Below the pieces are notes generated by a model. That model was not told the DNA's origin, searched no databases, and saw nothing but the letters and a program-made list of their open reading frames with translations. From a virus (lineage: Duplodnaviria; Heunggongvirae; Uroviricota; Caudoviricetes): a DNA stretch of 64,000 nucleotides. The position numbers were made by a program, and so were the translations under genes. The stretch covers positions 24,804-88,803 of IMG/VR virus record IMGVR_UViG_3300006226_000014. One strand, 5' to 3'. This document shows positions 6,026 through 59,329 of the stretch, one piece after another; position 1 is the stretch's first letter; each line of letters begins with the position of its first letter.

Positions 6026-6030
6026 GCATC

Positions 6031-6239: not shown

Positions 6240-6240
6240 G

Positions 6241-6648: not shown

Positions 6649-6658
6649 GGAGCAGATT

Positions 6659-6949: not shown

Positions 6950-7095
6950 TTATGCAGGCAATTCATTGGGCTGTAAGAATGAATGTCGTTTATATCGTTT
7001 ATCTCTGTGGAGATGATTATGTAATCTTTAAGAATAACTTCTTTTGGGAGGTAACAAACAGTTTAGATTCAGCTAAGCAGTTAATATACTAATTA

Positions 7096-22810: not shown

Positions 22811-23299
22811 ATGATACTGTTTGAAAGAGTGTACGCTAAATCATTAGAAGGAAAAGGAGAATACAAACAACCTTTTCGAGATGTATTAAAGTTTGCTCAA
22901 AATTATTTCAAACGGAACTTTATAGATAAGACCTTTCAAACTAAAGAAGGACGAGATATCAAAATAACAGAAAGAGGATTTAATGAACTTTTCTTTTCGA
23001 TAGTAGAAGCTATGAGAGGAGGAGATAAGGGAGCTGCTGAAGTTTTTAAGTCTAGAGCTGATGATGAAGATTATTGGTATGATGTTCTTTCTATTGTGGT
23101 AGAATTAGATGACATAATTGCTGATATGGATTTTGAATATCAGAAGCCTAACTATAAGCAAAACAAAAAGCCAAATGTTCTGAAATATGTAACATTTTCT
23201 AGTGAGGTTGAATTAGATGGCGAATTACATAATGTTATGATTAGAATAGAAGTCCCACATGAGGGCAAACCAAGATACTACTTTCATTATATAGATTAA
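22811..23299 (+). CDS. Hypothetical protein (162 aa).
   Basis: Track ORF; ATG preceded by AACTAACTAAT with no SD. Confidence 0.5.
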   Translation: MILFERVYAKSLEGKGEYKQPFRDVLKFAQNYFKRNFIDKTFQTKEGRDIKITERGFNELFFSIVEAMRGGDKGAAEVFKSRADDEDYWYDVLSIVVELDDIIADMDFEYQKPNYKQNKKPNVLKYVTFSSEVELDGELHNVMIRIEVPHEGKPRYYFHYID

Positions 23300-23889
23300 T
23301 CTATATCCATCTGATACAAAAGCTCATCATACATTTCTTCTGTTAAAGATTCAGTTCCAGCAAACTGTTCAAATCGATCATAATCTAAATCTTTAACGCA
23401 TTGTCGTAATAGTGACGCGCTTGCCTGCTCTGTTGGATCATTACTACTTTCATCTCGTGCACCTGCAGATAAATTTTCTAATTTGTCAAACTCAAAGTAT
23501 TTAGGATTACTTTTATTACCATTATATTTCTGAATTCTTTCCCAGTCATCTTGTCTATCATCCCCACCGATTATATAAACTTCATTATATCCTTGTTCAT
23601 ATAATTCCGGCAATACATCATACATAGTCAAGGCGTCACTTTCTACAACTGTAACATATTGATCTACAGCGTCCCTAACAAATTGTAACTTTTTATCATA
23701 AGATAATGGGTTCTTGCATTTTTCTGATTTAAATTTTCCAGAATCTTTTCCATCATAAGAATGCGACAAATATAAAAGTGCCTGACCATTTAATTTGGTT
23801 GCTTTTTGTAACATAAATTTGGCCATTTTAACATGACCAATTGTAGGAGGATTTAATCTACCAAATGATAAAACTGCTATATTTTTCAT
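23296..23889 (-). CDS. Nucleotidyltransferase with an HxGH motif (NMNAT/NadD/CoaD-like).
   Basis: N-terminus AVLSFGRLNPPTIGH matches G-x-F-x-P-x-H-x-G-H of the class I aaRS-like nucleotidylyltransferases. Confidence 0.45.
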   Translation of the reverse strand: MKNIAVLSFGRLNPPTIGHVKMAKFMLQKATKLNGQALLYLSHSYDGKDSGKFKSEKCKNPLSYDKKLQFVRDAVDQYVTVVESDALTMYDVLPELYEQGYNEVYIIGGDDRQDDWERIQKYNGNKSNPKYFEFDKLENLSAGARDESSNDPTEQASASLLRQCVKDLDYDRFEQFAGTESLTEEMYDELLYQMDID

Positions 23890-24536
23890 TATTTTTCCTT
23901 ATAAGATCTTCTTTTGGGTTGTACCTTCTGATTACTATAATCATAATTTATATCATCATTAGTAGGTTCATATCCAGATTTTTTTCTCCATTCTAATTCT
24001 TGTTTTATATCTTTTTTATCATATTGATTAATTTGATTTTTTCTTCCTCCATATAAACTATTTTTTATTCCTTTTGTAATAAAATTTTCATTTTGATCAT
24101 TTAACATTCTTTGTAATTGCATAGTAGCATCATTAGGGAATAATGATTGTTGTCGTATTTGGGCCCTTTCATTGGTATTTCTATCTTTTAATGCATCCAT
24201 AGAATCTAAAAATTCAAAACTCTCCATTCCATTAGTATAATAAGTAACGTCTCCGTCAATATCAATTGTTTTATTTTTAATCATTTGTTTTATTTGATCA
24301 AGAGTGTATGGACCAGATTGTTGTCCATTAACTTTTAATTGATATTGTTTTTGTTCATTTTGTGATAATCCACTATTTTTTTGTTGAACAAAAGAAGTTG
24401 GTTGATTAGCATATGGATTATATTGAGTTATTGTTTGGCCAGTTCTTGTATTTTGTGGTACTTTTGGTAATTTTTTATTTCTATTAAAAAAACCCTCTCT
24501 TAATTGAGATTGATATATTTCTTCAAATGTTTTCAT
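23889..24536 (-). CDS. Q/N-rich hypothetical protein with an MKTFEEIY leader (215 aa).
   Basis: N-terminus MKTFEEIYQSQL. Confidence 0.5.
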   Translation of the reverse strand: MKTFEEIYQSQLREGFFNRNKKLPKVPQNTRTGQTITQYNPYANQPTSFVQQKNSGLSQNEQKQYQLKVNGQQSGPYTLDQIKQMIKNKTIDIDGDVTYYTNGMESFEFLDSMDALKDRNTNERAQIRQQSLFPNDATMQLQRMLNDQNENFITKGIKNSLYGGRKNQINQYDKKDIKQELEWRKKSGYEPTNDDINYDYSNQKVQPKRRSYKEK

Positions 24537-25393
24537 TATTTCTCCTTAAATAAAACTTTTATATGTGTTGATATATTTATGTCATAATCACATATTTCTT
24601 TTACATAATTTTTCATATATTGTAATGTAAAAGGCTCCCAATAAGTTACACTATATTTAGCATTACCAACTCTATGTAATTTTCTGAATAAGTCTTCTGT
24701 TTTCATATCAAAGTATCGTTCATTTACTTCTCTATCCCAATTATCCCAATAATTCCATTTAGATAATAAATGAATAAGTTCACCATGAGTATCTATTTTA
24801 CCATATATTTTTTCATAAGAGTCTATTCTTTCTTTTCCATTTTCTTGTAATTCTAAGTCTTCTTTTATTTCATTTAACTCATCTTCTAGTATCTTCTTAT
24901 TATAGTCTTTAGCTCTTATTGCCATGTCTCTAATTGAAATATAAGTAAAACCAGAGTTAAATAAATTAGACCAAAATTCTTGTACTTCTTCATCGCTACC
25001 ATAAGAATAAACTTCATGAATTAAAGAATTAGCTGTAATAACTGATGTACCTCTAAATGATCTAATCTTTTCTTTTATCTTATTAAAATCAGTTGTAAAT
25101 GTTACATTACTTTCTTTTACATTTGACTTAGCTCTAGTAATCATATCATCTGATAAGTCATAACCAATATATTCAGCATTTTTTTGAAATGGTAATACAG
25201 CTTTAATAAGTGAGCCTTCTGCACAACCATAATCAACTAATAGATCAAAATCAGATATATGATTTAAGAAAAATATTTTATCATGTATTACTTTATTCAT
25301 ACTAGAATTATATTTTTCTAATTGTTCAGGAGTCATTTTATGATTATCTAAAGCAAATTCTTTTAATCTATATATCTGTTCAAATGTTTTCAT
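24536..25393 (-). CDS. Class I SAM-dependent methyltransferase-fold protein with an MKTFEQIY leader (285 aa).
   Basis: Motif I DLLVDYGCAEGSL; motif II EYIGYDLSDD. Confidence 0.5.
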   Translation of the reverse strand: MKTFEQIYRLKEFALDNHKMTPEQLEKYNSSMNKVIHDKIFFLNHISDFDLLVDYGCAEGSLIKAVLPFQKNAEYIGYDLSDDMITRAKSNVKESNVTFTTDFNKIKEKIRSFRGTSVITANSLIHEVYSYGSDEEVQEFWSNLFNSGFTYISIRDMAIRAKDYNKKILEDELNEIKEDLELQENGKERIDSYEKIYGKIDTHGELIHLLSKWNYWDNWDREVNERYFDMKTEDLFRKLHRVGNAKYSVTYWEPFTLQYMKNYVKEICDYDINISTHIKVLFKEK

Positions 25394-25766
25394 TAACTCC
25401 TCTAAAAAGACTAGTATATTTCATAGTTACGGCACCAAAAAAGTTTTTGCAAAATAGTGCTGCTTTATTTGGATCAAATGATTTACAAGAAAAAATATCT
25501 ATATAAGCTGAGTTATCTTTTTCAGCAAAATGGCCGCTTATTAAAGATGTTTCTATAAGCTGAGCAATAGAATAACCAGTTACATCTGGATTATCTCCAA
25601 AACGAACTATAATTGGATCGCTAAAAGCTTTCATATTTATTTCTTTAACTATAGCAATGAGAAATTCTTCCATCTTTTCTTTACTTCGTATTATATCTGG
25701 ATTACAATTTTGTAAATCAATAGATGTAGATATTCCCCAACAATCTTTATTTTCATATGTTTTCAT
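25380..25766 (-). CDS. S-adenosylmethionine decarboxylase-fold protein (SpeH/class 1 AdoMetDC-like); the catalytic motif is divergent.
   Basis: CWGISTSIDLQNCN ... TGYSIAQLIETSLISGHFAEKDNSAYIDIFSCKSFDP aligns with B. subtilis SpeH [34 protein letters not shown]. It has ETS in place of ESH. Confidence 0.5.
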   Translation of the reverse strand: MKTYENKDCWGISTSIDLQNCNPDIIRSKEKMEEFLIAIVKEINMKAFSDPIIVRFGDNPDVTGYSIAQLIETSLISGHFAEKDNSAYIDIFSCKSFDPNKAALFCKNFFGAVTMKYTSLFRGVNENI

Positions 25767-28700
25767 TTAATCTCCTATTTTATAATCAAATTTTGATATA
25801 TTATTTAAATCATAATTACCGTAATCTTTTTCTTGTTCTTTTACTGATTTTCTTCCACTTATTTTTAAATAATAAACACTTTGATCATCATCTATCTCTT
25901 TATCATCAGAAGAATAAACTAATGGATACTTACAAGCATATGATATAAATCTTGTTAAATTATAAAAAAAATTTTTTTTAGAAGCTGTTCCTCTTCGTTG
26001 ACTAAAATAACTAAATACTTTTTCTATTACTTCTTCATAATTTCCATTAGTTAAATAATTATAATATTTGTCGGCTGCGGTAAATAATTTTAAATCTTCT
26101 ACAGAATATTTTTGACGTATTGTTTCCCTAGCTTCTTCAATAGAAATATTTGAACCATTATTTTTCATTCTATTTTGTAAATTTTTAGCTAAAGAATTAA
26201 ATTTTCCATCTTTAATTCCTTTTGATTGATTATAAATACTATATATTTCATTATCTAAAATTTTTAAAGATAAATTTTTTATTTTTGGATCTAATTTTAA
26301 TAATGTTTTTAAACTATCAGAACCGCGGCCACCTGCGGCATCACTATCATGTAAAACTATTTGAAATCCAGCTGATTCTGTGCCAGATGATCTATAATCT
26401 AAAGTAATAAAACTTTTTGCTGATTTTAAATGATTTTCTTTATTTAAAAATATTTTTACATTAGCACCAGTATTTGTTGAAATAATATTTGAAATATTTT
26501 GTAAAGTATAATCTTTAGGAAAACTCTGGCCGCATCTAAAAGCTAAAAAGTATTCAGGATTAAGATCTGGTGAACCATGTGTTACAGCTGACATATGGGC
26601 CATTCCTTTAGTTTTCTTTAAAGAAATACCAACAACATCTCCAGAATTTAATAAATTATTCCATTGATTTTTATATTCAGAAGTGTTACTTAATTTTTGT
26701 AATTTTGTTGCTTCTGCCCAACCAGTTTTTGGAATTAAAATACAGTCAGATGGATTTATAGAATCTCTTTCAGAATCATCACCTTCACTTTTAGAAAATT
26801 GTTCATTAATTATTTTTTGTATTGTAGAAATATGAGAATTTCTTTTTTCATTTCCTAATTCAGCACTTACTCCATAAAATAATTCATTTCTATTAGGATG
26901 AATAACAATTGAGTTATTAAAATTAATATTTTTACCTTTATAAATATTGATTAAATCTTTTATAACATCATCATCAGTCATCTCATTTATAGATTTACTC
27001 CAATCATTTATAAATTTTTCATAATTTTTACTTGATAGTGTTTTTTTACAAATTAAACTAGATTTTTCATGAGTTATATCGTCTATATTTTCTGGAGCAC
27101 CAAATAATCTTCTTTCTAATAAATAAGAAACAATAGCTTCTTGAACATCTTGTACATATGAGGTTATATTTGTTATTTTCTCTTCTTCAATTTCTTCGTC
27201 TTCTTGTCCCGCTATCCAACCATTTATTTTTTTTCCAGTACCTTGTACTGGAAAGCCATCAAAAGTTCCCCAATTTTTTTTATTATTAATTGATAATTTT
27301 AATTTAGACAATTTTTCTTTATCTTCTTTATTTATATTTTCCATAAAAATAGTAATTTTATTATTTTCATTTTTTGCATCTTTTATACCAACTTGAAAAT
27401 TATCTCCTAAAATATCAGCTAATTTTATTGCAGATTGTTGTAATAAATTTAATTCTTCTTTTTCTCTTAAAGATTGTAAAAACTCAGAAATAAAATTTTC
27501 TTGTTCACTAATCCTAGTTTTAGTTTCAAATCCTTTCACAATATCAGCTGATCTATTAAACATACTAAAAGCTGATCTATCTACTAACTTAACAAAGTTA
27601 CCATCATTATCACTAACTACAAATCCCTCTCCACTAGTAGTCTTCATTCCACTTGATCTAGTTTGCACTTTAGTCATCCACTCATTAGACTTATTGAACT
27701 GGTCTATTAAGATCCCCTTGATGTAAGACGCCCAATATAGTCCATCTGCAATGTCTTGAATCAGTTGTTGATTTTCATTCACAAGATAATGTAACTCATT
27801 AGATGTAGACTTAATAGATAGCCGCTTATTATCTCGGCCCTTCTTAGTTTTAAGCTTATCGAGGCCCATATAGTTTCGTCGCATTTTAGTAGTTATCCAA
27901 TCATGCAACTCTTCTACAAATATCTCAGGTTCTATTTCTTCACCTTTGTCTACTTTATGGTTCTGTAATGTCATAAAATAGAACTGAATGAAGTCATCAT
28001 TGCGAACAAGTTCTTCATAACTATCATGAGCCAAAATCTTCTCGCATCGCTTTTCTAATTCAGTTATGCTATTCTTTAGTCCGTCTGAATCTTTCTTACT
28101 CATAGACACCTTACCAGATAAGTCAGGTAATCGAGCATCTATCACAAAAGCCCAAGATGGTACATTATTCAGTTCTTCTACTTTGGTATCATTTGATTGT
28201 CGTCTGTTTTCGTTATAACGAGTGTGAAATACGATACCAATTTCAGAATTAGCAATTCGTTGACCTAAGTCAGAATCTGCTGGCGCGGCATAGACTATCG
28301 TATTAGGTTGTACATACACCAATTTCTCACCGTCTTCAATATGTGTCTTTTGGTCACCTTGAGTCCAGAGTAGATCACCTTGCCAAATTTGATTAGGTGG
28401 AATGATAGATTGCTGGGCTAATTTCAATGCTGTTTTCAATTTAGCTTGCAACTCAGGAGATCGGCTATCTGCATCTATATCTTCATCAGATTGATAGAAC
28501 TTAGGATTGACATTAAAGACAGATTTAGTAGACACAGCTGGGCCTGGAAAGTCTGGATAAGAAGTCCACATTGTAATGGCTGGAGCGCCATCCCATTTGA
28601 CCGTTGGTCTAGGTTGAGAAGCATCAGATGATCCTTCTACAATAGATAGGGCATGATTAAGAAAATTAATCATTCGTTCGACATATTCTGGTCCTTTTAG

Positions 28701-32580: not shown

Positions 32581-32937
32581 ATGAAAATACGAACAGGATT
32601 TGTTAGTAACTCGTCTTCGAGTTCATTCTGCATTTTTGGAGTTTATCTAGATTCAGAAGAGATAGACGATGTCTTTGGCTTTGAATATGATACTGAATCC
32701 GATGATAGAAAAGATGACGAGCGCTGGAATAAAGTAGAAAGTTTGGGTTTTGACTATTATGGTCCAAATGATTATTGGGACGGTTATTACATTGGTGTAG
32801 AAGTATCAGAATGTCCAGATGACCAAACTATGGGCGACTTTAAGAAATCAATTATAGAAAAGATCAATGCTAAAGCTAAGAATCAATTAGATCAAAGAGC
32901 ATTTAGTATAATGTCCCAAGGATGGTATAATGGCTAA
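32581..32937 (+). CDS. GFVSNSSSSSF-leader family member 5 (118 aa).
   Basis: N-terminus MKIRTGFVSNSSSSSFCIF; acidic body. Confidence 0.7.
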   Translation: MKIRTGFVSNSSSSSFCIFGVYLDSEEIDDVFGFEYDTESDDRKDDERWNKVESLGFDYYGPNDYWDGYYIGVEVSECPDDQTMGDFKKSIIEKINAKAKNQLDQRAFSIMSQGWYNG

Positions 32938-33830: not shown

Positions 33831-35468
33831 ATGAGTAAGTTAAATGAAGATTGGGACCCCGCTTTAGATGATTTAAGCTTTGAAGATGAATTAGCCCTAT
33901 ATGATGCTCCATATATCCCAGGAGAAGAAACGGATTGGGCTGCTTATGGTAATGATGAGGATGAAATGATAGACGACATGCCTATTGATGATTTTGAATA
34001 TGATGCAGTAGGTGATATAGAATCAGATTATCATCCGCTATTTGAAGCACAAGTATTATCAATATTCAAAGACAATAAGCCATTGACACGAGTTAATCCC
34101 GGAAGTGAACAAGATATAGATCAAGCCTTAGGAATATTAGCCAGAAATCCTGGTAGCATAATGAAGCCTATTCAAGAAAGCAAATTATCAGAAGGCATAT
34201 TTAGTTCTGTTAAGCCAAAAGTTGGTACTGTTACTGGTCGTATTTTCAAAGTAATCGACAGAACAGGTAAAGCCGTAGAAGCTGTATTTACTAATCTAAA
34301 GAATGAAGTAGATAGATACAACAATAAGACAAAGATCGGATTGAACTTTGCTAAAGGAGAATTTTCGGGTGGTGATAAAGAAGCTACTGAAAAAGCTATT
34401 CGTTATGTTATGAGTAGACCTGGCACTTTTATCACTTGTGCACAAAATTCTGCTGGTAGAGTTGTTGAATCTATTAAAGAATACGAAGAATATTTGTTAA
34501 GAGAAAATCTTAAAGACACTATATTTGGAAAAGAAGACTGGCACGGTGATAGAGACTGGGGTAGGACAAAACGACGATTCAAAGCTGCGGTTGCTTCTGG
34601 CAAAAACCCAGTAGATAAGTTCTTAAAAGGTGCTGGTCGTGTTGGCCACGAACTACTGGGTGGTGATATGTGGGACGATATGTCTGAATATATTGATGAC
34701 TACATTGAAGGAAGAGGTCCTTATGCTTATGATCCAAAGTACACTGCAGAATCACAACGAAAACATAGAGTTTGGGAGTTGAAAGATTCTTTAGGTAAAA
34801 GAGCAGGTGACTGGAAAGAACCAAAATTAGTACCTATTGAAAATGCTAAGTTAACTGAAGCTTTTGAAGAAGACAAAATTTTTGATTTAGCTTATGGTTA
34901 TTGGGAAAATGAACCACAAATGGGACATGATGGAATAGCTGTTGCTATTAGTGATGAATTCCCAGAAGAAGATTTCCAACTTATCTATAATATTGTAGAC
35001 GATGCGCGATTAGCAGTTGCACGACCAATAAGAGAGGGCGGACCTCGTAAGAATATAGATTACGAAGGAATAGCCCATCAGTTCTGTCTCATTAAAGATC
35101 CAGTAGCTAGACAAGCTGCATGTGATAAGTTGTTTGATCTAATTAAGTCTAAGAATACTGAAACAGCTGAAAAAGAAGCTAAGAAAGCAATGAAGGCTGC
35201 TAATAAAGCACAAGTTGCTGCAACAGCTGCACAACAAACTTTAACTGAAAGAAAATTAAATGAAATGACTGCTAAATGTGATTGTTGTAATAAAGCATTT
35301 AGTTCAAAAGATGGTGGGATAACAACAACTGTGTATGATTCATATATTGGATCAGAAAGACCAGTTGACTTTTGTGAATCATGCACTGTTGATATTCTAG
35401 GTGATGAATATTGGAATCTAGATGAAGATGAAATTAGAAGAATAGTGGAGGATGAGTATTTTGAATAA
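33831..35468 (+). CDS. Hypothetical protein (545 aa) with an acidic N-terminus and a C-terminal Cys4 motif.
   Basis: Track ORF. ATG preceded by AACTAACTATT. CDCCN ... CESC near the C-terminus. Confidence 0.55.
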   Translation: MSKLNEDWDPALDDLSFEDELALYDAPYIPGEETDWAAYGNDEDEMIDDMPIDDFEYDAVGDIESDYHPLFEAQVLSIFKDNKPLTRVNPGSEQDIDQALGILARNPGSIMKPIQESKLSEGIFSSVKPKVGTVTGRIFKVIDRTGKAVEAVFTNLKNEVDRYNNKTKIGLNFAKGEFSGGDKEATEKAIRYVMSRPGTFITCAQNSAGRVVESIKEYEEYLLRENLKDTIFGKEDWHGDRDWGRTKRRFKAAVASGKNPVDKFLKGAGRVGHELLGGDMWDDMSEYIDDYIEGRGPYAYDPKYTAESQRKHRVWELKDSLGKRAGDWKEPKLVPIENAKLTEAFEEDKIFDLAYGYWENEPQMGHDGIAVAISDEFPEEDFQLIYNIVDDARLAVARPIREGGPRKNIDYEGIAHQFCLIKDPVARQAACDKLFDLIKSKNTETAEKEAKKAMKAANKAQVAATAAQQTLTERKLNEMTAKCDCCNKAFSSKDGGITTTVYDSYIGSERPVDFCESCTVDILGDEYWNLDEDEIRRIVEDEYFE

Positions 35469-35661
35469 ATTATTTGAAGAAATCTATAAAGGAAATCAAT
35501 TAAAAGAATCAAGATATCAGTTTTTAGAAACTGATTATTTAGGTGAAGTAAACGAATATACAGCTAAAACAGAACTCCAATTACTTGAATACGTAAAAGA
35601 TTTTATAGAGAGTTCTAAAGCTTCTTCTGGACCTACAGAATTTACTGTAAAGAGAATATAG
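35452..35661 (+). CDS. Hypothetical small protein (LFEEIY near the N-terminus).
   Basis: Track ORF. Confidence 0.4.
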   Translation: MSILNKLFEEIYKGNQLKESRYQFLETDYLGEVNEYTAKTELQLLEYVKDFIESSKASSGPTEFTVKRI

Positions 35662-36372
35662 ATGAAATCTGTTGATGAATATATCAAATTAGCAAAAGAT
35701 TCAAATAATGCTCTTGATATAATAGAAAATGCTTTAAATGATCGCAGTTTGTCGGATGATGATATATTAAAGCTTATTGGAATTTTAGAATATTTACAGG
35801 CTGGAATATCAAAAGGTCGAGAAATGTTTGGTCAAGACTATTTAGGAGAGAACATGAAAAAGTTTGAAGAAATCTATCAACAAAATAAAGAAAAAAGTTC
35901 AAAGAAACTTAAAGAATTTGAATTAGAAAGATGTGCTGGGTGTGGAAAAAGATTTATTAGTAGATCTGGATTAGATATTCTATGTAGTAAATGTGATCCT
36001 GGTAAAAAAGAAAGAGCAAAATTTGCATATAGAGATAAGTCAACTCCGTTAGCACGCGCTATAAATAAAGAACACAATAATGCAGTTGAACAAAACTATA
36101 TTGAAAAATATGGTCATCCTTATGGTAGAGTTAAAGAATCTTGGGTTAAAGATAGTGATTATAGAGATGAATCAACTGGAATATATGATTCAGAATCACA
36201 ATTTAGATATAGTATTGATAGATTTAAAGATATGACAGAAGATACTCTTAATATTATTGATGATATGCCAGAACAGGATTTAGAACCACATAAAAGTGCT
36301 GACGAGTATTTGCAATATCATTTTGATGTTGCAGTTGAAAGATGGAAAGGACATAAAAAGGATCGTGACTAA
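35662..36372 (+). CDS. Hypothetical protein with a zinc-ribbon (236 aa).
   Basis: CAGCGK ... CSKCD. Contains an internal MKKFEEIY. Confidence 0.5.
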   Translation: MKSVDEYIKLAKDSNNALDIIENALNDRSLSDDDILKLIGILEYLQAGISKGREMFGQDYLGENMKKFEEIYQQNKEKSSKKLKEFELERCAGCGKRFISRSGLDILCSKCDPGKKERAKFAYRDKSTPLARAINKEHNNAVEQNYIEKYGHPYGRVKESWVKDSDYRDESTGIYDSESQFRYSIDRFKDMTEDTLNIIDDMPEQDLEPHKSADEYLQYHFDVAVERWKGHKKDRD

Positions 36373-36788
36373 TGAAAACATTTAATGAAATATTACAAGA
36401 AGCATCAATGCCAAAAAGTATGCGGCATCCGCCTAACCCAGATGCAGTTAAAAATGATGGTGTCAAATTACCAGGCGGAATAAAGGCCTATTGTAGAAAG
36501 AATAAAGAATGCAGTAGTAGCGAGCCAACATTTGATTTGATTTTTGAAGGACCAAATGGTGCAAAACGAGTTATTAGTAATTGGGCATATTATAGAGGTG
36601 GATATGACCAAGGCTGGGGAGCATCTAATAAGCAACAATGGTATTTAGAAACTGAATCTCATTATGGCGCAGGTAACGGTAGTGGTGTTAGCAGCAAGAG
36701 AACACCATCACTTAAGTATTATCGACATATGGAAAGTCATTTGTTAGATCATTACAAAAAAGAACTAAAAGAATTATTAGGACACTAA
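36372..36788 (+). CDS. Hypothetical protein (138 aa); MKTFNEIL leader variant.
   Basis: Track ORF, ATGA junction. Confidence 0.5.
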   Translation: MKTFNEILQEASMPKSMRHPPNPDAVKNDGVKLPGGIKAYCRKNKECSSSEPTFDLIFEGPNGAKRVISNWAYYRGGYDQGWGASNKQQWYLETESHYGAGNGSGVSSKRTPSLKYYRHMESHLLDHYKKELKELLGH

Positions 36789-36789
36789 A

Positions 36790-36996
36790 ATGAATTTTAA
36801 TGATATATATCAAATGGGAAAAGGTCTTCATGTTACTGGAGAAGAAAAAGCACAAATAGGTAATTGGTATTTATTTGAAAATATTGGTTGGCAAATAATT
36901 CAAGATAGATGTAAAGAAAAATTTGGTAAAGAAATTTCCAAAGATAGATTAGAAAAAATAGTGGCCGACTATGAGGATTTGATTGAAAAGTTTTAA
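36790..36996 (+). CDS. Hypothetical protein (68 aa).
   Basis: Track ORF. Confidence 0.45.
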   Translation: MNFNDIYQMGKGLHVTGEEKAQIGNWYLFENIGWQIIQDRCKEKFGKEISKDRLEKIVADYEDLIEKF

Positions 36997-37570
36997 TGAA
37001 ATTTACAATATGAATGAAATAGAAGAATTCCATTTGCAACGAATGGATAAACATATATCTAAAGTTAAAAAATACTTATTAGAATTTACAAACTCAGACT
37101 TATCTAAAGAATTGAACTTTTCTAAAAGAGATGCTATTGAATTAGGTAATAAGCACGACCAAGATAAAATAGAAGGAGATCTATTTGAACAATATAAATA
37201 TATATCTTGGCTTTACAAATGTAAATTAGCCGAGGTACCTTGTGATATTCCATACACTGAAGATATGGACAAAGCAACTACTGCTCATATCCGAAACAAT
37301 AAACACCACCCAGAATATTGGGATCCAAACTTTACCCCACAAGTAGTAACTGACTTTAATCAACGAGACAGTACTAAACTAAAATCTCGTGACGGAAGAA
37401 AGATGCCAGTAGCACATATTATCGAAATGTGCTGTGATTGGAAAGCAACAAGTGAAGAACGCGGCAATAAAGCAGTTGATTGGGCATATAAGTGCTTAAG
37501 AGATAAACGATATATCTTTACAGATAATCAATGGGACTTAATTTATCGTATTTTAGGAATTATTGACTAG
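36983..37570 (+). CDS. Hypothetical protein (195 aa), MKSFNEIY leader; possibly an HD-like hydrolase (weak).
   Basis: His/Asp pairs (NKHDQD, NNKHHPEY). Confidence 0.45.
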   Translation: MKSFNEIYNMNEIEEFHLQRMDKHISKVKKYLLEFTNSDLSKELNFSKRDAIELGNKHDQDKIEGDLFEQYKYISWLYKCKLAEVPCDIPYTEDMDKATTAHIRNNKHHPEYWDPNFTPQVVTDFNQRDSTKLKSRDGRKMPVAHIIEMCCDWKATSEERGNKAVDWAYKCLRDKRYIFTDNQWDLIYRILGIID

Positions 37571-39371: not shown

Positions 39372-39529
39372 TGAAAATAGTAAAAGAATTTGAAATTGAG
39401 ATAGAAGGCGATAAGGGTATTGCAGTAATTATCTATAGAAAGAATTTCTATAAGCAAATTACTGTCAATGAATTATTAAAAATGCTACAGGATGGTATGT
39501 ATGAAGAAGAGAACTGGATTCGTCAGCAA
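39371..39529 (+). CDS. Hypothetical small protein (52 aa).
   Basis: TAATG overlap with the upstream stop; below the track cutoff. Confidence 0.3.
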
Positions 39530-51422: not shown

Positions 51423-52733
51423 CTAATCAATTGATTCTTCTATGTCACTTATTCCAAAAGTATCTATCAAATACTTTTCTAACTCTCCACTGTTTTTAAA
51501 CATCATTCCTTGAAACTCAAACGGTCGTTTTATGTCTCCTTGTTCTAGATAATCGTACATCAGATTCAAGTTCATCTTTCCGTCTTTATTCGTAATTGAA
51601 GTTACATCTAACTCAAACATATCACCTTGTCTAATCATAAAGTCTTCTTTGTCTATATCTAAATCATCGAATTCGTGTCTGTCAAATGAGTGTGGTCTAG
51701 TGTTATTTATTGGGTGTTGTTTGAATGTGTCTATGTCTTCAGATTCAGAAATATCCCATAATGGTTCATTTGGATCAAACGGTCTAACTGGTCGGTATAT
51801 AGTTTCTCTTTTATTGTCGTATCTAATTATCTGTATGTTCTCTGGGTTGAATACAAATATATTACCGACACCATTTTCTTCTGAAACGTAACCGTCATAA
51901 TTTAGCTTACGAACAATATCAGTGATCATAGGATTTTCCATTTGACTCCATTTATGAGTTCTAAATACTTCTGTTAGTTCACTTTGCAAAGTTCTATACA
52001 CTGCGCCAGGTTGCTTCATAGCAAAATTGAAGAAAAACTCTCTAGGATTCTTTCTCACTTCAGTCAAAAAAGCTGTTCTGTCTTTTCGACTACCTGGATT
52101 AAATAGATTAAGTGGCTTAGTCAATAAACATCGATATAGGTAATATTCATCTTGCCGGAACTTATCCATGAGATAGTCTCTTAAGTAGTCATTGATCATT
52201 ACTAATTTAGGTGTTAGAAAAGTGCCGCCGTATGATACATCAGTGCCTCTAAAGCGATTACGTTTTTCGAACTTAGTGAACTTATTAGGAGATATATGAT
52301 AGTAAGACTTTCCAGTTCGATAGATTTGTTCAAATAACTGTGACTCCTTAATTGTGTTGGGCTTCAATGCGACATAAGTGTCTGCCACTACTTTTGGGTC
52401 TTTTACATTTTCTATAACTAATCCGTCATGGTCATTCTCATAAGCCATTAAGGATAACTTATCAGAATTGTATCTTTTTCCATCTATTTGTATGTCATGA
52501 TAATCAGCACCTTCCGCATCAATGATCATTGGGTCATCAAATTCTAATTCATTTTTAATGACTTTTCCATCACCATACCATTCAGCAACTTCTGGATCTG
52601 ATGTGTACCATTTTCCTACAGACTTTTTTGAAGTGATCTTATCAAATTCTCCAGGTTCCCAGAAGTTTTTGCCGTCATCACTTCCTCCTGACATTCCACG
52701 ATAACCAGTATAGATTTCTTCAAATAGTTTCAT
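51423..52733 (-). CDS. Hypothetical 436-aa protein with an MKLFEEIY leader.
   Basis: Track ORF; SD AGGAAAG. Confidence 0.55.
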   Translation of the reverse strand: MKLFEEIYTGYRGMSGGSDDGKNFWEPGEFDKITSKKSVGKWYTSDPEVAEWYGDGKVIKNELEFDDPMIIDAEGADYHDIQIDGKRYNSDKLSLMAYENDHDGLVIENVKDPKVVADTYVALKPNTIKESQLFEQIYRTGKSYYHISPNKFTKFEKRNRFRGTDVSYGGTFLTPKLVMINDYLRDYLMDKFRQDEYYLYRCLLTKPLNLFNPGSRKDRTAFLTEVRKNPREFFFNFAMKQPGAVYRTLQSELTEVFRTHKWSQMENPMITDIVRKLNYDGYVSEENGVGNIFVFNPENIQIIRYDNKRETIYRPVRPFDPNEPLWDISESEDIDTFKQHPINNTRPHSFDRHEFDDLDIDKEDFMIRQGDMFELDVTSITNKDGKMNLNLMYDYLEQGDIKRPFEFQGMMFKNSGELEKYLIDTFGISDIEESID

Positions 52734-52742: not shown

Positions 52743-54497
52743 CTAAGCGAAAAAGTAATGGATATCATCAGCTGTGTCATATATCACATAGACACTATCA
52801 TCATATCGCTTCAAATAGATAGGCTCCCAACCTGGAAAGCCTTTCATTAATTGAACTGGAACATCACATGCAGCCCACAACTGATCTCTGCTAATTTCTT
52901 CAAAGTTACTATCTTCTGGTCCTCCATCAAAATCATCTAACCTAGCATAATAGCCCATGTCCTGCGCGCACTCAGTTTCATCTTCCCAGGGCAAGTCATC
53001 ATTGATTCCTAATTCACGACAGTCACCAAGATATTGCTTTCGTTTCTTCGGAGGTTTGGGTACTTTCTTCTCATTTCGTAGCTTCTTAAGCTCATTAATA
53101 GCTTCTATGTTCTCTTTAGAATAAGGTTCTGTCTTGCTATAGACATTCATCCAATAGGCTTCGTCTTTTGCTTCTTGTAAGTTTGATACATAATAGATAT
53201 TAGCTCTGATATCTAAAAAGTCATTATGATAAGCATATGCTGCTCTATGATGTCCATCCATTATGCAGTAATAGCCATTCCACTCACACACGTCTATTGG
53301 GTCACAGTTGAAAGTGTCTCCGCCTTCTATATCATCAAATTGACTCCAGTCGTAAGGTTCATCACCATCGCCGTCCATGTCTTGTCGTAATCTGCCAATA
53401 GGTATAAGGCCTGACTTATGTGGCAACTTAGCTCTCACACAATCTGTCCATACTCGATATCTGTCTTCTGGGTCAATATCAGGAAAGTCTTCCCAATCCA
53501 TTTCTGGTGCAAAGTACTTAGTCTTAGGCCGATTAGATTCTTGGAGTGCTCTACGATAGATAGACTCCATTAAGCCAACTTCTTTCCTAGTATCTTCTAA
53601 TGGTTCATTATTGGCTATCTCTTCAGCCTCTTCGTTGTTCTTAACTGCAACATTTGGTTCTTCAATGGGCGGCTCAGCTTCTTGTGGACCTTCAGCTGCT
53701 TCTGTTTCAGCCTCTACTGGTTTAGCTTCAACGGTACTGGTGTCCATTACCGGTAAGTCGTTCTGCTCTGAAGTCGACTGCACCTCGTCTATGTCAGCAC
53801 TGACTGCATCAGCTGCTTTCTCACTCTTGATGCCACCTTGAGATTGCGTTCTTTCATCTGGTAAGCCAGCTGGTTGTTCTGGTGCTTCGAGAGTATCTTC
53901 TTGTGATGTAGATGCAGCAGAGGAAGTCGCAGTTTGAGCACCGCCTAATTGCTTCAATATGTTAGGTATCTCTTTGTCTAAATCTTCAATAGCAGCCCAG
54001 AGGTGCTTACATAATTGTTGTCCTCTAACATTGCCACTGCTATCATGTCGATTAGCCCAAATGTCTTTGCCTTGTTGGCCAGTGAATGGTGAGTACGTGT
54101 TGTCTTTCTTATCGTCTTCTTCGAACATACCCTGCCAATAGAACGCGCCACAGTCACATTGTACTTTAACGTCTGCTTTGTCAAATACTGTCTGTAGAAT
54201 CTGAGCTTGTTGACTATATGGAAGAGTCTCAAAGTTCTTGGGTATGATGTTTGCTATGTTGTAGAAGTGTAGTTGAACAGCGTAACCCTTACTTAGGCCA
54301 GCCATCTCTTGTCCATTGACGCTAAAGTGAACATTGTTGCTTTTGCTGCTTTCAACTTCAAATAAGATATGAAGACTGTTTGGGTAATTTAGTATGCTTC
54401 GGACCAAGTTTGTTGAGCCAGTACCATCTTTGCTAATGGCTTTGTTCGTAATGCCTGACGTTACAAATTGATCTAGACGATATTCTACAAGCTGCAT
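52743..54497 (-). CDS. ParB/Srx-fold (DGHHR) domain protein with an acidic low-complexity linker (584 aa).
   Basis: GYYCIMDGHHRAAYA is the ParB-like nuclease-domain signature. ATG preceded by ACTAACTAAT. Confidence 0.5.
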   Translation of the reverse strand: MQLVEYRLDQFVTSGITNKAISKDGTGSTNLVRSILNYPNSLHILFEVESSKSNNVHFSVNGQEMAGLSKGYAVQLHFYNIANIIPKNFETLPYSQQAQILQTVFDKADVKVQCDCGAFYWQGMFEEDDKKDNTYSPFTGQQGKDIWANRHDSSGNVRGQQLCKHLWAAIEDLDKEIPNILKQLGGAQTATSSAASTSQEDTLEAPEQPAGLPDERTQSQGGIKSEKAADAVSADIDEVQSTSEQNDLPVMDTSTVEAKPVEAETEAAEGPQEAEPPIEEPNVAVKNNEEAEEIANNEPLEDTRKEVGLMESIYRRALQESNRPKTKYFAPEMDWEDFPDIDPEDRYRVWTDCVRAKLPHKSGLIPIGRLRQDMDGDGDEPYDWSQFDDIEGGDTFNCDPIDVCEWNGYYCIMDGHHRAAYAYHNDFLDIRANIYYVSNLQEAKDEAYWMNVYSKTEPYSKENIEAINELKKLRNEKKVPKPPKKRKQYLGDCRELGINDDLPWEDETECAQDMGYYARLDDFDGGPEDSNFEEISRDQLWAACDVPVQLMKGFPGWEPIYLKRYDDSVYVIYDTADDIHYFFA

Positions 54498-54502: not shown

Positions 54503-54925
54503 TTAGTTATGCAGTGGGTCTCTTTTCTTATCGGTGTAAAAGTCAACGACAGCCATTTGATCAGATGAGTCCGTTGGCGCAACCCATAGAGTGATTTGAT
54601 ACGGTTTGAGTTCAGCCTTCTTAACTGCGTAAGCTGTCAATGCAGCATTCTTACCCTTCTTAGATTTCCAATAGAGGCCGTCGTCATCAAAAGTGAGCTT
54701 ACAGTCATCCCATCTAAAGCGGTCATCATATTCTGGATCTTCTTCATCCTTGTCTTTATCATCACCTTCGTGGCTATAGTCGAAGCACGAAAATGATCCG
54801 CGTTTTGGCTCATCACTGTAGATTTGTACGTGATCTAATTCATGCATTTCTTCAATGAGCATCGTATAGAAGCTATTCTCCAATACTTTCTCTCTAAGTT
54901 GGTAGATCTCCTCAAAGCTTTTCAC
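54503..54925 (-). CDS. Hypothetical 140-aa protein with an MKSFEEIY leader.
   Basis: Track ORF. Confidence 0.5.
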   Translation of the reverse strand: MKSFEEIYQLREKVLENSFYTMLIEEMHELDHVQIYSDEPKRGSFSCFDYSHEGDDKDKDEEDPEYDDRFRWDDCKLTFDDDGLYWKSKKGKNAALTAYAVKKAELKPYQITLWVAPTDSSDQMAVVDFYTDKKRDPLHN

Positions 54926-57179
54926 CGCTAATCATCTCCTCTATGTCCTCACGTAATGGCTCACTTAGCATTTGATCTAAGTTGTGATATTGTTCTTTTG
55001 TCTCATTTAGCATATCTGATACACTCATTTCTTTGAGCTTAGTCTTACCAACTCCGCCGAATTCGAGGTTCTTATCTGTTAGTACTTGGAATGTCTCAAA
55101 TAGCGGATTAGCTGTGTTGATCTTAGGAACGAGCATCTCGTGTGAATGTCCAGGTCGACTCCATTCAGTTAAGTTCTGCTCAGCTAACCAGTTGAAGTAG
55201 ATCTCATTGCGGGCTTCTTTGTAGCGCTCGCTTATCTCTTTGAGTCGTTTCATCTTAGCTTCATATAGCGTTTGTTGCTTCTCTTTAGCCAACTTTTCAC
55301 GCAGCATCTTTCGAGTTCGTAGATAGTACTCACGTTCAGCTGCATTCATAGATTCTGGCATTGGTTCAACATCACCGCCACCGTCACCTAGGTCTTCTCC
55401 ACCGCCATCTCCACCTTCGCCTCCAGCACCACCAGACATATCGATGTCCATGTCTCCACCGTCACCACCTTCACCCTCTTCTTCGTCTCCTTCAGAATTG
55501 GCTTTAGCAGCGGCCTTGGCGATCGCAGACAATCTGATCCATCGTTGTAAGTCAGTTGGATCTAAAAATGTGTACTTAGAGAGAATGTCAGCAACAACAT
55601 CTTCAGGAAGTGGTTCACCCTCTTCCATTCCGAGTACGCCTTGAAGCATCTCAATGATGCCATTAGCTAATTCAACTGATGCTGATCTAGCTTCTCTCTT
55701 CTCATCACCCATGTCCTCAGCAGGGAAGCGCATTGACAATACGAACGGTATGTTGTAGTCAAACTCACCGGTAATAGCAAAGTGCAATCTAATAAGTTGG
55801 CCGAGACATTCGAGAAAGGTGGACTGTATTGTGTACACATGTCGAGCAAATGGTTTGTACTGTTCAGTTAGCGCGATGCCGCTATTTCCAAATCCGCCAA
55901 ATTCTTGGTCAAGATAAGACTTCGGAACACCACAAGCAATAGCGACTCTATCCTGATACATCTCTAAGTCGCCAGTAAAGTCCATATCAACTTTTGATTC
56001 GTGTATCTTCATATCTAAGAGCCCTTCAGGCACCCAAACTTTTGTATTGACGGTATACACCTCAAGACTGTTGCTTAATGGACTAACTCCTATGTTCTCA
56101 TAGTCTTCACGTACGCTGTTGACTGTTTCAAATGCTGTTGCTACACCAACGCCTTCCGTTCCTTTGACACTGTAGACCTGCACTGGGAAAGAAGAAGCTC
56201 TAGCTAATCCCTGAAGTGCCATTGTGCTGTAGCATTGTTTGAATGGCGCTAATGCCATAAGTAGTGGTGGATAACCGTATGGAAAGAACTCACTGTTGTC
56301 AGCTTGATAGCGGAAGTGGCTAATTAGCCAAGGTGGAACTATGATGCCATCTGCAAACTCGAATCCGAGTAGTTTGGTGTCAAACATATCGGCAAAGTTG
56401 TCATCGAGATCAGACAATGTGTCTTTTCCGCTGCGTGTAGTCAACAAGTCAACTAATCGGCTTATCTTGCTATTGCGGTTCTTCATCATCTCTTGCTCGC
56501 CTGTCATTTGAGCAACTACTTCAGCCATGTGTACTGCACTGAACTCAAGTCGTTCTTTAAGCATTGGTACTTTGAGAGGGATGATACGCTCTACACCTTT
56601 GTCAGACACTCGATGAGCCCAAAGTGCTTCACCGTATTGTTCTATGTCGTAACAAGCAGCACTGATACGTTGCTGTGTCAATCCCCATTGACTAAATAGT
56701 TCATAACACTTGTTGACGAATGGGATAGATGGGCTCTCTACTGAAAGCAATCTGTTTTGATCATCTAATTGTGTTGCTTCATCTGCGACTAGGCGACATA
56801 CCCTAGATAAGAATGGGTCATTTAGAACAGCAAATCTGAGTTCATTCAGTCGTTGTTGTCGTTCGGCTATATCGCTATAGACAAGAGTTGTCTCATTGAT
56901 ATATGCATTGAAGTACTTATTGAGAGTTGTAGCTAATGGTGCTGATTTGAAGATGCTGCCTAATGCGGCATGCTTAACTCTGTACGAATCATTTGCGACA
57001 TCTACTTTGACTAATCGAATGCCGTTTGCTTTCTCAAATTCGGACTGTGCATCTTTACGTTGCACTCCCTGCCAGCCCCAAAGGCTACTTAATCTCTTTG
57101 AGAAGCTGGACTTAAAGATTTCAGACTTTGGTTTTTGTCCACTAGTATATATTGATTCTTGTAATTGACTATCTGCCAT
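54912..57179 (-). CDS. Large hypothetical protein (755 aa); possibly portal or morphogenesis-related.
   Basis: Long ORF. C-terminal Gly/Asp/Glu low-complexity tract (EGDEEEGEGGDGGDMDID ...). ATG preceded by ACTAACTAAT. Confidence 0.5.
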   Translation of the reverse strand: MADSQLQESIYTSGQKPKSEIFKSSFSKRLSSLWGWQGVQRKDAQSEFEKANGIRLVKVDVANDSYRVKHAALGSIFKSAPLATTLNKYFNAYINETTLVYSDIAERQQRLNELRFAVLNDPFLSRVCRLVADEATQLDDQNRLLSVESPSIPFVNKCYELFSQWGLTQQRISAACYDIEQYGEALWAHRVSDKGVERIIPLKVPMLKERLEFSAVHMAEVVAQMTGEQEMMKNRNSKISRLVDLLTTRSGKDTLSDLDDNFADMFDTKLLGFEFADGIIVPPWLISHFRYQADNSEFFPYGYPPLLMALAPFKQCYSTMALQGLARASSFPVQVYSVKGTEGVGVATAFETVNSVREDYENIGVSPLSNSLEVYTVNTKVWVPEGLLDMKIHESKVDMDFTGDLEMYQDRVAIACGVPKSYLDQEFGGFGNSGIALTEQYKPFARHVYTIQSTFLECLGQLIRLHFAITGEFDYNIPFVLSMRFPAEDMGDEKREARSASVELANGIIEMLQGVLGMEEGEPLPEDVVADILSKYTFLDPTDLQRWIRLSAIAKAAAKANSEGDEEEGEGGDGGDMDIDMSGGAGGEGGDGGGEDLGDGGGDVEPMPESMNAAEREYYLRTRKMLREKLAKEKQQTLYEAKMKRLKEISERYKEARNEIYFNWLAEQNLTEWSRPGHSHEMLVPKINTANPLFETFQVLTDKNLEFGGVGKTKLKEMSVSDMLNETKEQYHNLDQMLSEPLREDIEEMISGEKL

Positions 57180-57940: not shown

Positions 57941-58782
57941 TAATCGTCAAAATCTTCGTCTTCAAAATCGTCTTCATCTGGACCAAAATCTTCGTCCATT
58001 TGTTGATACCAATCAGTTTCTCCAAGTTCGTCTTCATCATAATCATCTTCGTCTTCTAACTGTTCAAAATCAAAGTCATCATCAAAGTCGTCTTCTTCAC
58101 TTTTTGGTCCAACTATGTTGCCCATATCGTCTAGGCTATCATCATCTAATCCAGCCGCTTTCCATATCTCATGTTGTCGTTCTTCATCAGGATCTATTCC
58201 ATCATCGCTCATCATGCCAGCTTCATCTATATCACAGTATGGACAGTTGCCATCGATCATTTCTTCACCGCACTCTTCACATATTTCAGTTCCTGGCATA
58301 TAGTTATCCATATCTATAAATGCTTGCTTACTTCCGGGTCCAAATTCATCCCAGTCATCAAAACTGTCAGCCATTGCTCTACGCTGTTCTGGTGTTTGAG
58401 CAGCTTCTTTCACTGGTTTTCTAACAGGACGTTTCTTAGATGCAGCTAATGCTTTCTTATCTTTTGCGTTAGCTTTTCGCTTGGCTTCATTTTCTTTTCT
58501 CCAAGCAGCGTCTTCTGCTTTAGCATTTCGTTTTGCAGCGCCTTTAGGATCTTCCTTATTCTTCTTTTCTCGCCATTCATCTTTGGCGCGCTGTGAAGCT
58601 TCAGGTCGTTTGGCTTCTGCTAATATGTTCTCAAATGTTCTCATAGTATTCTCCTTCATGTTCCAAGCTCTAGATAGTACATTCATGGCTTTATTGACAT
58701 ATTCATATGTAGTATCAGGATCATCATAACAGCTGTTAACTGCCTTTGATAGATATTTGTATGCTGTTATTATGTTACTCAT
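57940..58782 (-). CDS. Hypothetical protein with a basic Ala/Lys tract, a zinc ribbon and an acidic tail (280 aa).
   Basis: CEECGEEMIDGNCPYC; the C-terminus is very rich in D/E/F. Confidence 0.5.
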   Translation of the reverse strand: MSNIITAYKYLSKAVNSCYDDPDTTYEYVNKAMNVLSRAWNMKENTMRTFENILAEAKRPEASQRAKDEWREKKNKEDPKGAAKRNAKAEDAAWRKENEAKRKANAKDKKALAASKKRPVRKPVKEAAQTPEQRRAMADSFDDWDEFGPGSKQAFIDMDNYMPGTEICEECGEEMIDGNCPYCDIDEAGMMSDDGIDPDEERQHEIWKAAGLDDDSLDDMGNIVGPKSEEDDFDDDFDFEQLEDEDDYDEDELGETDWYQQMDEDFGPDEDDFEDEDFDD

Positions 58783-58792: not shown

Positions 58793-59329
58793 TTAATATG
58801 ATGGGTTAAGTGACTTATTCAAGCCCTCAATGAACTCATCAAATGAAGCATTAGATAAGTTAAGTCTTTTCCAAGAGGCCAAAAATAGTCGGACATCTTC
58901 TCTAGCAATGCGTAGGTATATGTCTCTTTGATTATCGGCTTTTTCTATTTGGTCTTTCACAGCCATCATACGCTCATTGTCACTTCTAATAGCTTGTAAG
59001 TCATAAGATGGTGGGATATTGATAACACCAGGTAGAGTGTTAACTTGCTGTGGAACATCCCTGCCGTACTTAGTAGATATGTCAGCACTTTCAGCTTGTA
59101 AGTTGATAGAATCTATCATACATTCTTTGTAGATCTTTAAGTTTTGAATTAGATGGCTTAAACTGCCAATAGTTGATTCAATAGCTGTAACAGATGTTTT
59201 AGCAATAGTCGCCAATATAGAGGCATCTTTTTGAGGCAAGTTTTTCGGTGTGTAATATTCAGTCAGCTTATCTTCATTTAACGGTGCTAAAGTTGGCTGT
59301 TCTCGTAACTCATTAAAGTTTGTAGTCAT
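58793..59329 (-). CDS. Hypothetical protein (178 aa from the ATG; the track uses a GTG at 59371).
   Basis: The internal ATG at 59327-59329 is preceded by TACTAACTATT, matching the recurrent start-box. Confidence 0.45.
   Translation of the reverse strand: MTTNFNELREQPTLAPLNEDKLTEYYTPKNLPQKDASILATIAKTSVTAIESTIGSLSHLIQNLKIYKECMIDSINLQAESADISTKYGRDVPQQVNTLPGVINIPPSYDLQAIRSDNERMMAVKDQIEKADNQRDIYLRIAREDVRLFLASWKRLNLSNASFDEFIEGLNKSLNPSY

Follow-up and report, generated by a model that had tools for sequence, protein, structure and literature searches.

The window, as the whole stretch of DNA analysed is called here, comprises 64,000 nucleotides (nt; positions 24,804 to 88,803) of the IMG/VR virus record IMGVR_UViG_3300006226_000014 (Caudoviricetes), and is contained in the 90,449-nt ENA contig ERZ27257348 k141_859843. 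Several of its open reading frames (ORFs) begin with a common peptide of the type MK(T/S/L)FEEIY, which is followed by otherwise unrelated proteins. In a first-pass annotation, made from the letters alone, this tag was likened to the capsid targeting sequence (CTS) of phage T4. It is the subject of the present analysis.

DNA and protein searches with the portal block (see below), the polymerase and a 390-amino-acid (aa) protein found no similar sequence among 50,697 cultured phage records. The only protein matches there were remote ones to PolA, given by the polymerase, a remote family A enzyme, so no cultured relative was available for comparison. The nearest relatives were three IMG/VR contigs of 199–329 kb (3300006226_001702, 3300010049_000010 and 3300010167_000010), syntenic with the window around the 755-aa portal ORF at 78–90% identity. 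Since these syntenic relatives span 199–329 kb, the window is a fragment of an uncultured jumbo (giant) phage. Identical pieces of the window were also present in a sister sample, ERZ27257302. Fetched relative loci were numbered with the prefix L (L001, L002, L003, L173, L197 and so on), L036/L197 being IMG/VR 3300006226_001721.

All eight tag copies listed by the first-pass annotation, whether N-terminal, at residue 8 or internal, were found where it had placed them. Five ORFs open with M/V/L-K-x-F-[EN]-[EQ]-I-Y (23889-24536, 24536-25393, 51423-52733, 54503-54925 with a GTG start and 36983-37570 with a TTG start); a sixth opens MKTFNEILQE (36372-36788), and the motif lies at residue 8 of 35452-35661 and inside 35662-36372. 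Further copies were identified within 51423-52733 (a second one), in 57940-58782 (MRTFENILAE) and in 52743-54497 (GLMESIYRRALQE), with weak ones at 36790 and 22811 (Table 1). The core motif F[END][EQND]I[YL] occurred 11 times in the 92 window proteins (19,023 aa); in 2000 sets of residue-shuffled proteins the mean was 0.41 and the maximum 4. It fell within the first 10 residues in 8 of the 92 genes, positions that make up 4.8% of residues, and the strict motif was absent from the non-coding frames of the window. A profile hidden Markov model (HMM) of nine tag positions separated tagged proteins cleanly. In about 1.35 Mb of other large-phage DNA, fetched as a by-product, a single match reached a score of 8 or more; this was itself a member of the lineage, and its sample contains an identical piece of the window as well. 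Relatives carry the tag on orthologous genes and on further genes.

The exact string MKxFEEIY was scanned for in IMG/VR, giving 62 matches, nearly all from two unrelated single families. MK[QN]FEEIY opens a radical-SAM family (L009-L070), mostly on contigs of about 30–33% GC, some of about 240 kb; MKTFEEIYRDAAVRNG opens a 145-aa family, likewise outside the window's lineage. As the 8-mer also opens such unrelated families, it is not by itself diagnostic of the tag; what is distinctive is its presence on many genes of one genome.

The DNA behind the copies differs at synonymous sites, as had been observed in the first pass (Glu as GAA or GAG, Ile as ATA, ATC or ATT, Tyr as TAT or TAC). The proteins behind the tag are indeed unrelated: they belong to different Pfam families, and after removal of the first 20 residues no similar pair was found by BLASTP (all E > 0.1). 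An origin from diverged paralogues that kept their N-termini, or by compositional accident in an AT-rich genome, is scarcely credible. The low GC content (25–43% across 2-kb windows) and the single families elsewhere that open with the exact 8-mer would suit such an origin; against it stand the shuffles, the different families, the lack of residual similarity and the existence of tagless homologues. A signal at the nucleic-acid level, either a translation-initiation or mRNA-stability element or a DNA joint for cassette shuffling, was judged very improbable. The start is A/T-rich with an AAA second codon that favours initiation, Phe is TTT in all copies, and genes have fused and split at the tag. 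Synonymous sites vary, however, and position 3 may be T, S, L or K; in-frame internal copies that have no start codon are kept in orthologues; the presumably abundant structural genes (portal, fibre, 1148-aa protein) carry no tag; and the shared DNA, about 24 nt with mismatches, is too short for homologous recombination. Chance, paralogy and a translation signal were thus rejected on the shuffles, the synonymous variation and the absence of similarity past the tag.

Table 1. Predicted leaders and head genes in the window and its relatives. A slash in a leader marks the predicted cut; coordinates are those of the window unless a relative locus is named.
Feature	Position	Strand	Remarks
Leader MKTFEEIYQSQLRE/G of gene 23889-24536	24495..24536	-	215 aa, Q/N-rich, GYF_2 domain, isoelectric point 9.4; HMM score 16.4
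Leader MKTFEQIYRLKE/F of gene 24536-25393	25358..25393	-	285 aa, class I methyltransferase fold, domain from about aa 51; HMM score 16.1
Leader MKLFEEIY of gene 51423-52733	52710..52733	-	436 aa; no L-x-E after the tag; first module ART-PolyVal-like
Internal copy SQLFEQIY within 51423-52733	52320..52343	-	just ahead of the second ART-like module (YYHISPNKF)
Leader (GTG)KSFEEIYQLRE/K of gene 54503-54925	54890..54925	-	140 aa, acidic, directly downstream of the portal gene
Internal leader GLMESIYRRALQE/S in 52743-54497	53538..53576	-	584 aa; between acidic linker and ParB-like C-terminal half (DGHHR)
Leader MRTFENILAE/A in ORF 57940-58782	58615..58644	-	basic half, then very acidic tail
Short-form leader MKTFNEILQE/A of gene 36372-36788	36372..36401	+	138 aa
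Leader (TTG)KSFNEIYNMNEIEE/F of gene 36983-37570	36983..37027	+	195 aa, DUF5662
Leader MSILNKLFEEIYKGNQLKE/S of gene 35452-35661	35452..35508	+	69 aa
Leader MKKFEEIYQQNKEKSSKKLKE/F inside ORF 35662-36372	35854..35916	+	contains internal MKKFEEIYQ; ATG at 35854
Weak leader MNFNDIYQ of gene 36790-36996	36790..36813	+	68 aa; HMM score 6.0
Weak leader MILFERVYAKSLE of gene 22811-23299	22811..22849	+	162 aa; LPD3 at aa 27-157
Minimal N-terminal L-x-E, MSKLNE/DWDP, of gene 33831-35468	33831..33848	+	heads the + strand tagged cluster; orthologue MMKPLKE/DWDP
Probable true start MTTNFNELRE/Q of gene 58793-59371	59300..59329	-	orthologues open MNTHFNDLKE, MNSHFDNLKE
Portal protein, assigned to T4 gp20 type	54912..57179	-	755 aa; N-terminus MADSQLQE/S
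Protease-scaffold genes of relatives (predicted)	L197 9980-12154; L198 10004-12130; L199 10001-12172; L200 10001-12181		
Other shared leader, MKxRxGFVSNSS(S/T)SSF	11213-11617, 11822-12175, 12175-12600, 13137-13868, 32581-32937, 39492-39875		6 pattern matches

Several comparisons show that the tag is a detachable add-on. Homologues of the DUF5662 protein at 57–82% identity carry it, and others at 55–58% begin exactly past it, the nine residues being absent. When this protein was modelled with AlphaFold 2 (AF2; mean predicted local distance difference test score, pLDDT, 91.9), residues 1–8 alone scored below 50 and formed the free end of the first helix; a fold search with the model gave no significant match and faint hints of an HD domain. 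Pfam domains of tagged proteins always start after the tag. The orthologue of 36372-36788 in L173 carries a long tag, MRIKSFEDIYKLNE/AGMPKCMRHPPN, and the window protein the short one, MKTFNEILQE/ASMPKSMRHPPN; despite this change of form the predicted E/A junction is conserved, A[SG]MPK[SC]MRHPPN. The C-terminal domain of the 584-aa window protein is a separate gene in L003 with its own tag, MKTFEQIYQLRE/D, and the tag in the window protein at the corresponding internal site is kept in orthologues (ESFENIYSNSLKE, ESFERIYQQSLRE). Members of the ADP-ribosyltransferase (ART) family have one or two modules with a tag ahead of each. The second copy in 51423-52733 is preceded by AAGGAG and by I-K-E, a context that looks like a gene-fusion relic.

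Two internal copies, whose ATGs lie at 35854 and 58644, probably represent real or alternative starts. The first has GGAG 6 nt upstream, at Shine-Dalgarno distance. The second has AAGGAG 6 nt upstream and its L002 orthologue opens MRTFKQILRE, so that this ATG is probably the true start of the 57940-58782 protein. The start of 58793-59371 reads as a compressed F-x-x-L-x-E form of the leader. The window has its tagged genes in three clusters. One (22811-25393) lies upstream of the genes for the 1148-aa and 390-aa proteins, on the same strand; a second spans 33831-37570; and the third, 51423-54925 plus 57940-59371, flanks the portal gene on both sides.

Two neighbouring starts were set apart. An S-adenosylmethionine decarboxylase gene (25380-25766; AdoMet_dc, E 2.9e-22) opens MKTYEN, its first four residues being those of the T4 tag; it was not counted as tagged, having neither the I-[YL] nor the L-x-E part. 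A 462-aa protein (start region 59358-59432), divergent from the portal-side block, opens MNELTIQILAQFKERLQAHRLRE/GF. The string LREGF is common to it, to tagged gene 23889-24536 and to the orthologues of the latter, and the leader of the 462-aa protein may be a different one that shares this cleavage site.

The tag is frequently followed by [LI]-x-E. This element was found in 22 of the 31 instances in the lineage, ending 7–13 residues past the Phe, against a background of 9.9% (binomial p 7e-16, the orthologues among the 31 not being independent). The residue before the Glu (P2) is mostly Arg or Lys. Spacing from the tag is variable (ILQE, IYQLRE, IYQSQLRE, IYKGNQLKE), which argues that L-x-E is a separate functional element and not part of a fixed helical face or register. 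The T4 prohead protease gp21 recognises L/I-X-E and cuts after the Glu, and mutagenesis of the T4 CTS assigned residues 4 and 7 to targeting and residues 8 and 10 to processing (PMC9026906).

The leaders were compared with those in the T4 record. The first-pass annotation had given the sequence MKTYQEFIAE to the T4 internal proteins (IPs) IPI to IPIII and to Alt; this was incorrect for IPI and Alt, since in the T4 record solely IPII and IPIII open MKTYQEFIAE/A (also PMC9958956). IPI has MKTFKEFTSTTTPVSTITE/A, opening MKTFKEFTST; other starts are MAKINELLRE/S (gp24), MNEPQLLIE/T (gp21) and MELITE/L (Alt, MELITELFDE). MKTFNEILQE/A and MRTFENILAE/A match the IPIII tag at positions 1–4, 6, 7 (hydrophobic), 8 (L for I) and 10 (E). 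All N-terminal copies have F4 and I7, and these two short forms also have L8 and E10. When the tag HMM was run on T4, IPI scored 4.3, a tie with the best unrelated T4 match, and IPII and IPIII lay outside the top 15; peptides of this length cannot reach significance. With IPII and IPIII not above noise, common descent with the T4 tag is not demonstrable, and the likeness at the key positions 4, 7, 8 and 10 is one of design.

The 755-aa ORF at 54912-57179 gave no direct match itself in Pfam, PHROG or PDB sequence searches. It has 289 homologue clusters, and it was assigned as a gp20-type portal because 16 of 48 sampled homologues matched Pfam Portal_T4 (PF07230; best E 6.4e-14). Its profile also gave a weak PDB match to the phiKZ portal gp129. 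Orthologues open MADKLQE/T, MAKEKLNE/S and MAKIKE/S at the N-terminus that corresponds to 57156-57179, L/I-x-E being kept at residues 6–8, which suggests that the portal, too, may be trimmed of a short peptide at its N-terminus. A minimal N-terminal L-x-E is also present on 52743-54497 (MQLVE/Y).

A prohead protease gene was sought outside the window, a check proposed with the first-pass annotation. Direct walks did not reach head genes: the 5 kb past the window start held solely more fibre genes, the tail-fibre C-terminus found no relatives, the walk on the FEN side reached no head genes, and a scan with the other shared leader of the window gave mostly other phages. T4 gp21 was searched by phmmer against every relative locus fetched, and one ORF of 724 aa was picked, in L036/L197. 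Its motifs NGNKRVYP, CDHP and TSSSGFG align with NRNKRLYP, LNHP and VSSRGLG of gp21. A profile of 10 family members was aligned to gp21 by hhalign (probability 85.7%, E 5.5e-6), and in a sequence search of the whole PDB T4 gp21 (5jbl) was the second-best match; the mutated catalytic His and Ser of 5jbl fall on the invariant H (DHP) and S (SSSGFG) of the family. In a Foldseek search with an AF2 model the top three matches were 5jbl chains, the sole significant folds (E 1e-4, probability 1.0), followed by weak herpesvirus protease matches. On these grounds the ORF was assigned as a gp21-type prohead protease. Past the protease domain come a Q/A-rich linker and a coiled coil of about 400 aa, which indicates a protease-scaffold fusion, the coiled-coil part being probably the scaffold.

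Orthologues of the protease (65–68% identity to L036/L197) lie on the same 200–330 kb contigs as portal orthologues of 78–90% identity, and a near-identical fragment (P0005) came from the sister sample ERZ27257302. The protease itself opens MERLRE/S[YW], comparable with the gp21 and gp24 starts of T4; its propeptide has several conserved L-x-E sites (MERLRE/S, RLTE/, RLTE/). In relatives, tagged genes lie directly before it (MKTFDEIYKLNE/K, MKTFRQIYQINKLQE/K, MKTFEEIYRLNE/K, MNAVLFSKLYPKLKE/N), and genes after it open MARLNE/A, MNKLNE/A, MAKRLRE/D and MARYNLRE/K. No major capsid protein was detected by Pfam among the protease neighbours in relatives.

The leader might act as a processing signal only, that is, as a protease-removable propeptide, for instance one holding enzymes inactive before the head matures or flagging them for turnover, with head entry being set by other parts of the proteins or absent. 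L-x-E enrichment and a gp21-like protease support cleavage and do not support targeting directly, and lineage structural proteins open with a minimal M-x-x-L-x-E that has no F-x-x-I-Y part. We regard this as unlikely, because F-x-x-I-[YL] is better conserved than L-x-E, which 30% of the tags do not have; because a gp21-type protease works inside the prohead (PMC9026906), where its substrates must then be; and because the T4 equivalents of positions 4 and 7 are targeting determinants.

The tagged proteins are 69–584 aa long, of one to three modules each, and mostly acidic or neutral. Pfam, PHROGs and PDB sequence searches gave nothing direct for most of them, and those not assigned here or in Table 1 show no known fold. 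The 22811-23299 protein matched LPD3 (PF18798, large polyvalent-protein-associated domain 3) with 43.4 bits against a cut-off of 27. Protein 51423-52733 consists of two tandem ART-like modules; it fell below the reporting threshold for ART-PolyVal itself, and a homologue of 59% identity (P0002) matched this family (PF18760) with E 4.6e-8 and 34.4 bits against a cut-off of 31.2. Relatives of the second module match weakly and share YYH[IG]S. From its N-terminus, protein 52743-54497 comprises a SWIM-like domain, an acidic linker, the tag and a ParB-like part that contains DGHHR, both assignments being sub-threshold (ParBc_2 E 0.081, SWIM E 0.067). ART-PolyVal, LPD and ParB domains are parts of proteins predicted to be packed in the head and injected (PMC5512222). 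The cargo domain set is typical of injected effectors. T4 Alt is the classical packaged ART.

The first half of 57940-58782 is rich in Lys, Ala and Arg and its tail is extremely acidic (DDFDDDFDFEQLEDEDDYDEDE...EDEDFDD), which recalls the similarly acidic tail of gp67, a prohead core protein of T4. A cytidylyltransferase-like gene, possibly a nicotinamide mononucleotide adenylyltransferase (23296-23889), abuts tagged genes. ORFs resembling nicotinamide phosphoribosyltransferase and nicotinamide adenine dinucleotide (NAD) synthetase were noted by eye just upstream of the protease locus (L197-L200, about 2000-7000). Such NAD-related genes may supply NAD for the tagged ADP-ribosyltransferases.

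Taken together, M-K-[TSL]-F-[END]-[EQN]-I-[YL] with L-x-E after 0–5 residues is likely to be a capsid (prohead-core) targeting propeptide that is removed by a gp21-type protease. The capsid-targeting proposal of the first-pass annotation was favoured by all the computational tests able to refute it, owing to the L-x-E element, the gp20-type portal, the gp21-like protease, the tagged flanking genes and the polyvalent cargo domains; packaging and N-terminal removal are what we infer from them. The hydrophobic positions 4 and 7–8 would dock the protein on the scaffold core during assembly of the prohead on a T4-type portal. The gp21-type serine protease, fused in this lineage to a coiled-coil scaffold, would then cut after the Glu of L-x-E and release the mature protein within the head, from which it would later be ejected along with the DNA. 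The tag would have been added to unrelated cargo (ART-PolyVal with two modules, methyltransferase, LPD3, DUF5662, ParB-like and GYF-like proteins) and exchanged between long and short forms; inside fusion proteins it would probably be a cleavable linker between modules.

More tentatively, the leader could be an address-and-release cassette that loads a large effector set readable from sequence, of at least 12 proteins in 64 kb and possibly dozens per genome. This would amount to a polyvalent system split into tagged modules, with the internal copies serving as linkers cut by the head protease.

A number of points weigh against capsid targeting. Packaging and cleavage are predicted from sequence. 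Five tagged genes (35452-37570) share a + strand block with replication genes and not with structural genes. Around 30% of tags have no nearby L-x-E, including both copies in the ART protein of the window, and the likeness to the T4 tag could be convergent or coincidental. The protease has no named match in Pfam or PHROGs, and its assignment comes from moderate scores and an AF2 model with a pLDDT of 49.5. Neither the protease nor a major capsid protein lies in the window or its 90-kb source contig, and the portal-protease linkage rests on relatives with 78–90% portal identity.

The tag might instead be an address for a different destination or partner. As an amphipathic N-terminal peptide, it might bind a chaperone, the tail or ejection apparatus, a membrane or a phage-nucleus-like compartment. 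A free, low-confidence helix end in the model suits any peptide docking, several tagged genes lie among replication genes, and the survey covered only part of each 200–330 kb genome. Such a destination nevertheless seems improbable: tagged genes cluster beside the portal and the prohead protease, the accompanying L-x-E suits a head protease, the peptide lacks the hydrophobic character of a signal peptide, and the window of about 64 kb and about 150 kb of relatives showed no nucleus-shell or secretion genes.

Other features of the window were recorded as follows. The other shared leader (Table 1, last row) occurred in at least 119 IMG/VR stretches, often in tandem gene arrays on 100–550 kb contigs of many different phages, and is thus far more widespread than the FEEIY tag. 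The 1148-aa protein (17815-21261) is almost entirely hydrophobic over its central 600–700 residues, which are probably made up of many membrane-spanning segments; neither it nor the following 390-aa protein (16642-17814) matched a family or a cultured phage. A 1002-aa protein (25767-28775) has an N-terminal DUF6267 domain (E 4.6e-62) with VKWDGAPAI, resembling the KxDG motif of nucleotidyltransferases, and two L-x-E sites in its first 14 residues, MTLKERYDAIKLQE. The family A DNA polymerase is split into 42696-44783 and 44944-45825 with a 53-aa ORF between, and the pieces are separate ORFs in L002 too. Homing-endonuclease-like genes (NUMOD3, DUF559/MTES_1575, I-HmuI NUMOD-like) were found at 5411-6025, 7400-8086 and 47221-47904, and at 12750-13331 in L001, where such a gene interrupts the orthologue of 52743-54497 and leaves two ORFs. 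Two host-like genes with lipoprotein-type N-termini (48498-49286 and 50678-51352) encode one family 3 solute-binding protein (SBP_bac_3, E 3.6e-39) and one Cys-rich protein of 224 aa.

If the targeting role is correct, the injected-protein set of an uncultured giant phage could be listed from its genome alone, with ADP-ribosyltransferases, a methyltransferase, a ParB-like nuclease and several uncharacterised folds as candidates for anti-defence or host takeover. A T4-style 10-residue head address, cut off by the head protease, would be in use well beyond the relatives of T4 and far more extensively, and the packaging trick of T4 would be linked to the domain repertoire of polyvalent proteins. 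The tag HMM combined with L-x-E would be a simple finder of injected proteins in metagenomic phage genomes of the lineage, and the short tag could be used to bring foreign proteins into the capsids of non-model phages.

Three known systems were compared. The CTS of T4 IPII and IPIII (Mullaney and Black, 1996, as reviewed in PMC9026906 and PMC3012670) is alike in that N-terminal tags of about 10 residues stand on unrelated proteins, with M-K-T-aromatic, a hydrophobic residue 7 and an L/I-x-E end. Both systems have a gp20-type portal and a gp21-type protease (the latter seen here in contigs of relatives), and diverse, fast-evolving cargo that includes an ADP-ribosyltransferase (in T4, Alt). Unlike T4, the window phage has a family A DNA polymerase, a genome of 200–330 kb and no match to a cultured phage, and is not T4-like. 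Its consensus is F-E-E-I-Y in two forms with a cleavage site shifted by 0–5 residues, it has at least 12 tagged genes in 64 kb against 3 IPs in T4, its tags also occur inside fusion proteins, and its cargo is mostly acidic or neutral whereas that of T4 is basic.

In phiKZ, 201phi2-1 and SPN3US, head and ejection propeptides are cut at S/A-x-E or A-x-E by gp175 or gp245 (PMC5694885, PMC10052503). These too are giant phages whose gp21-related protease cuts after Glu, and many of their internal or ejected proteins have N-terminal propeptides that are thought to target them to the prohead; the paralogues gp53 and gp54 have an identical 15-residue start. Their propeptides differ in being mostly 80–130 residues long, with no common short tag on unrelated proteins, and P3 is preferably Ala or Ser, whereas here it is Leu, as in T4.

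Polyvalent proteins (Iyer et al., 2017, PMC5512222) share the repertoire of ART-PolyVal, LPD3, ParB-like and methyltransferase domains, and are predicted to be effectors that are packed in the head, enter with the injected DNA and undergo proteolytic processing. They consist of one giant polypeptide with a MuF or portal anchor and processing by a zincin-like peptidase (PMC5512222). No tagged window protein joins many disparate domains in this way; here the modules are mostly separate small genes, each with a tag of its own.

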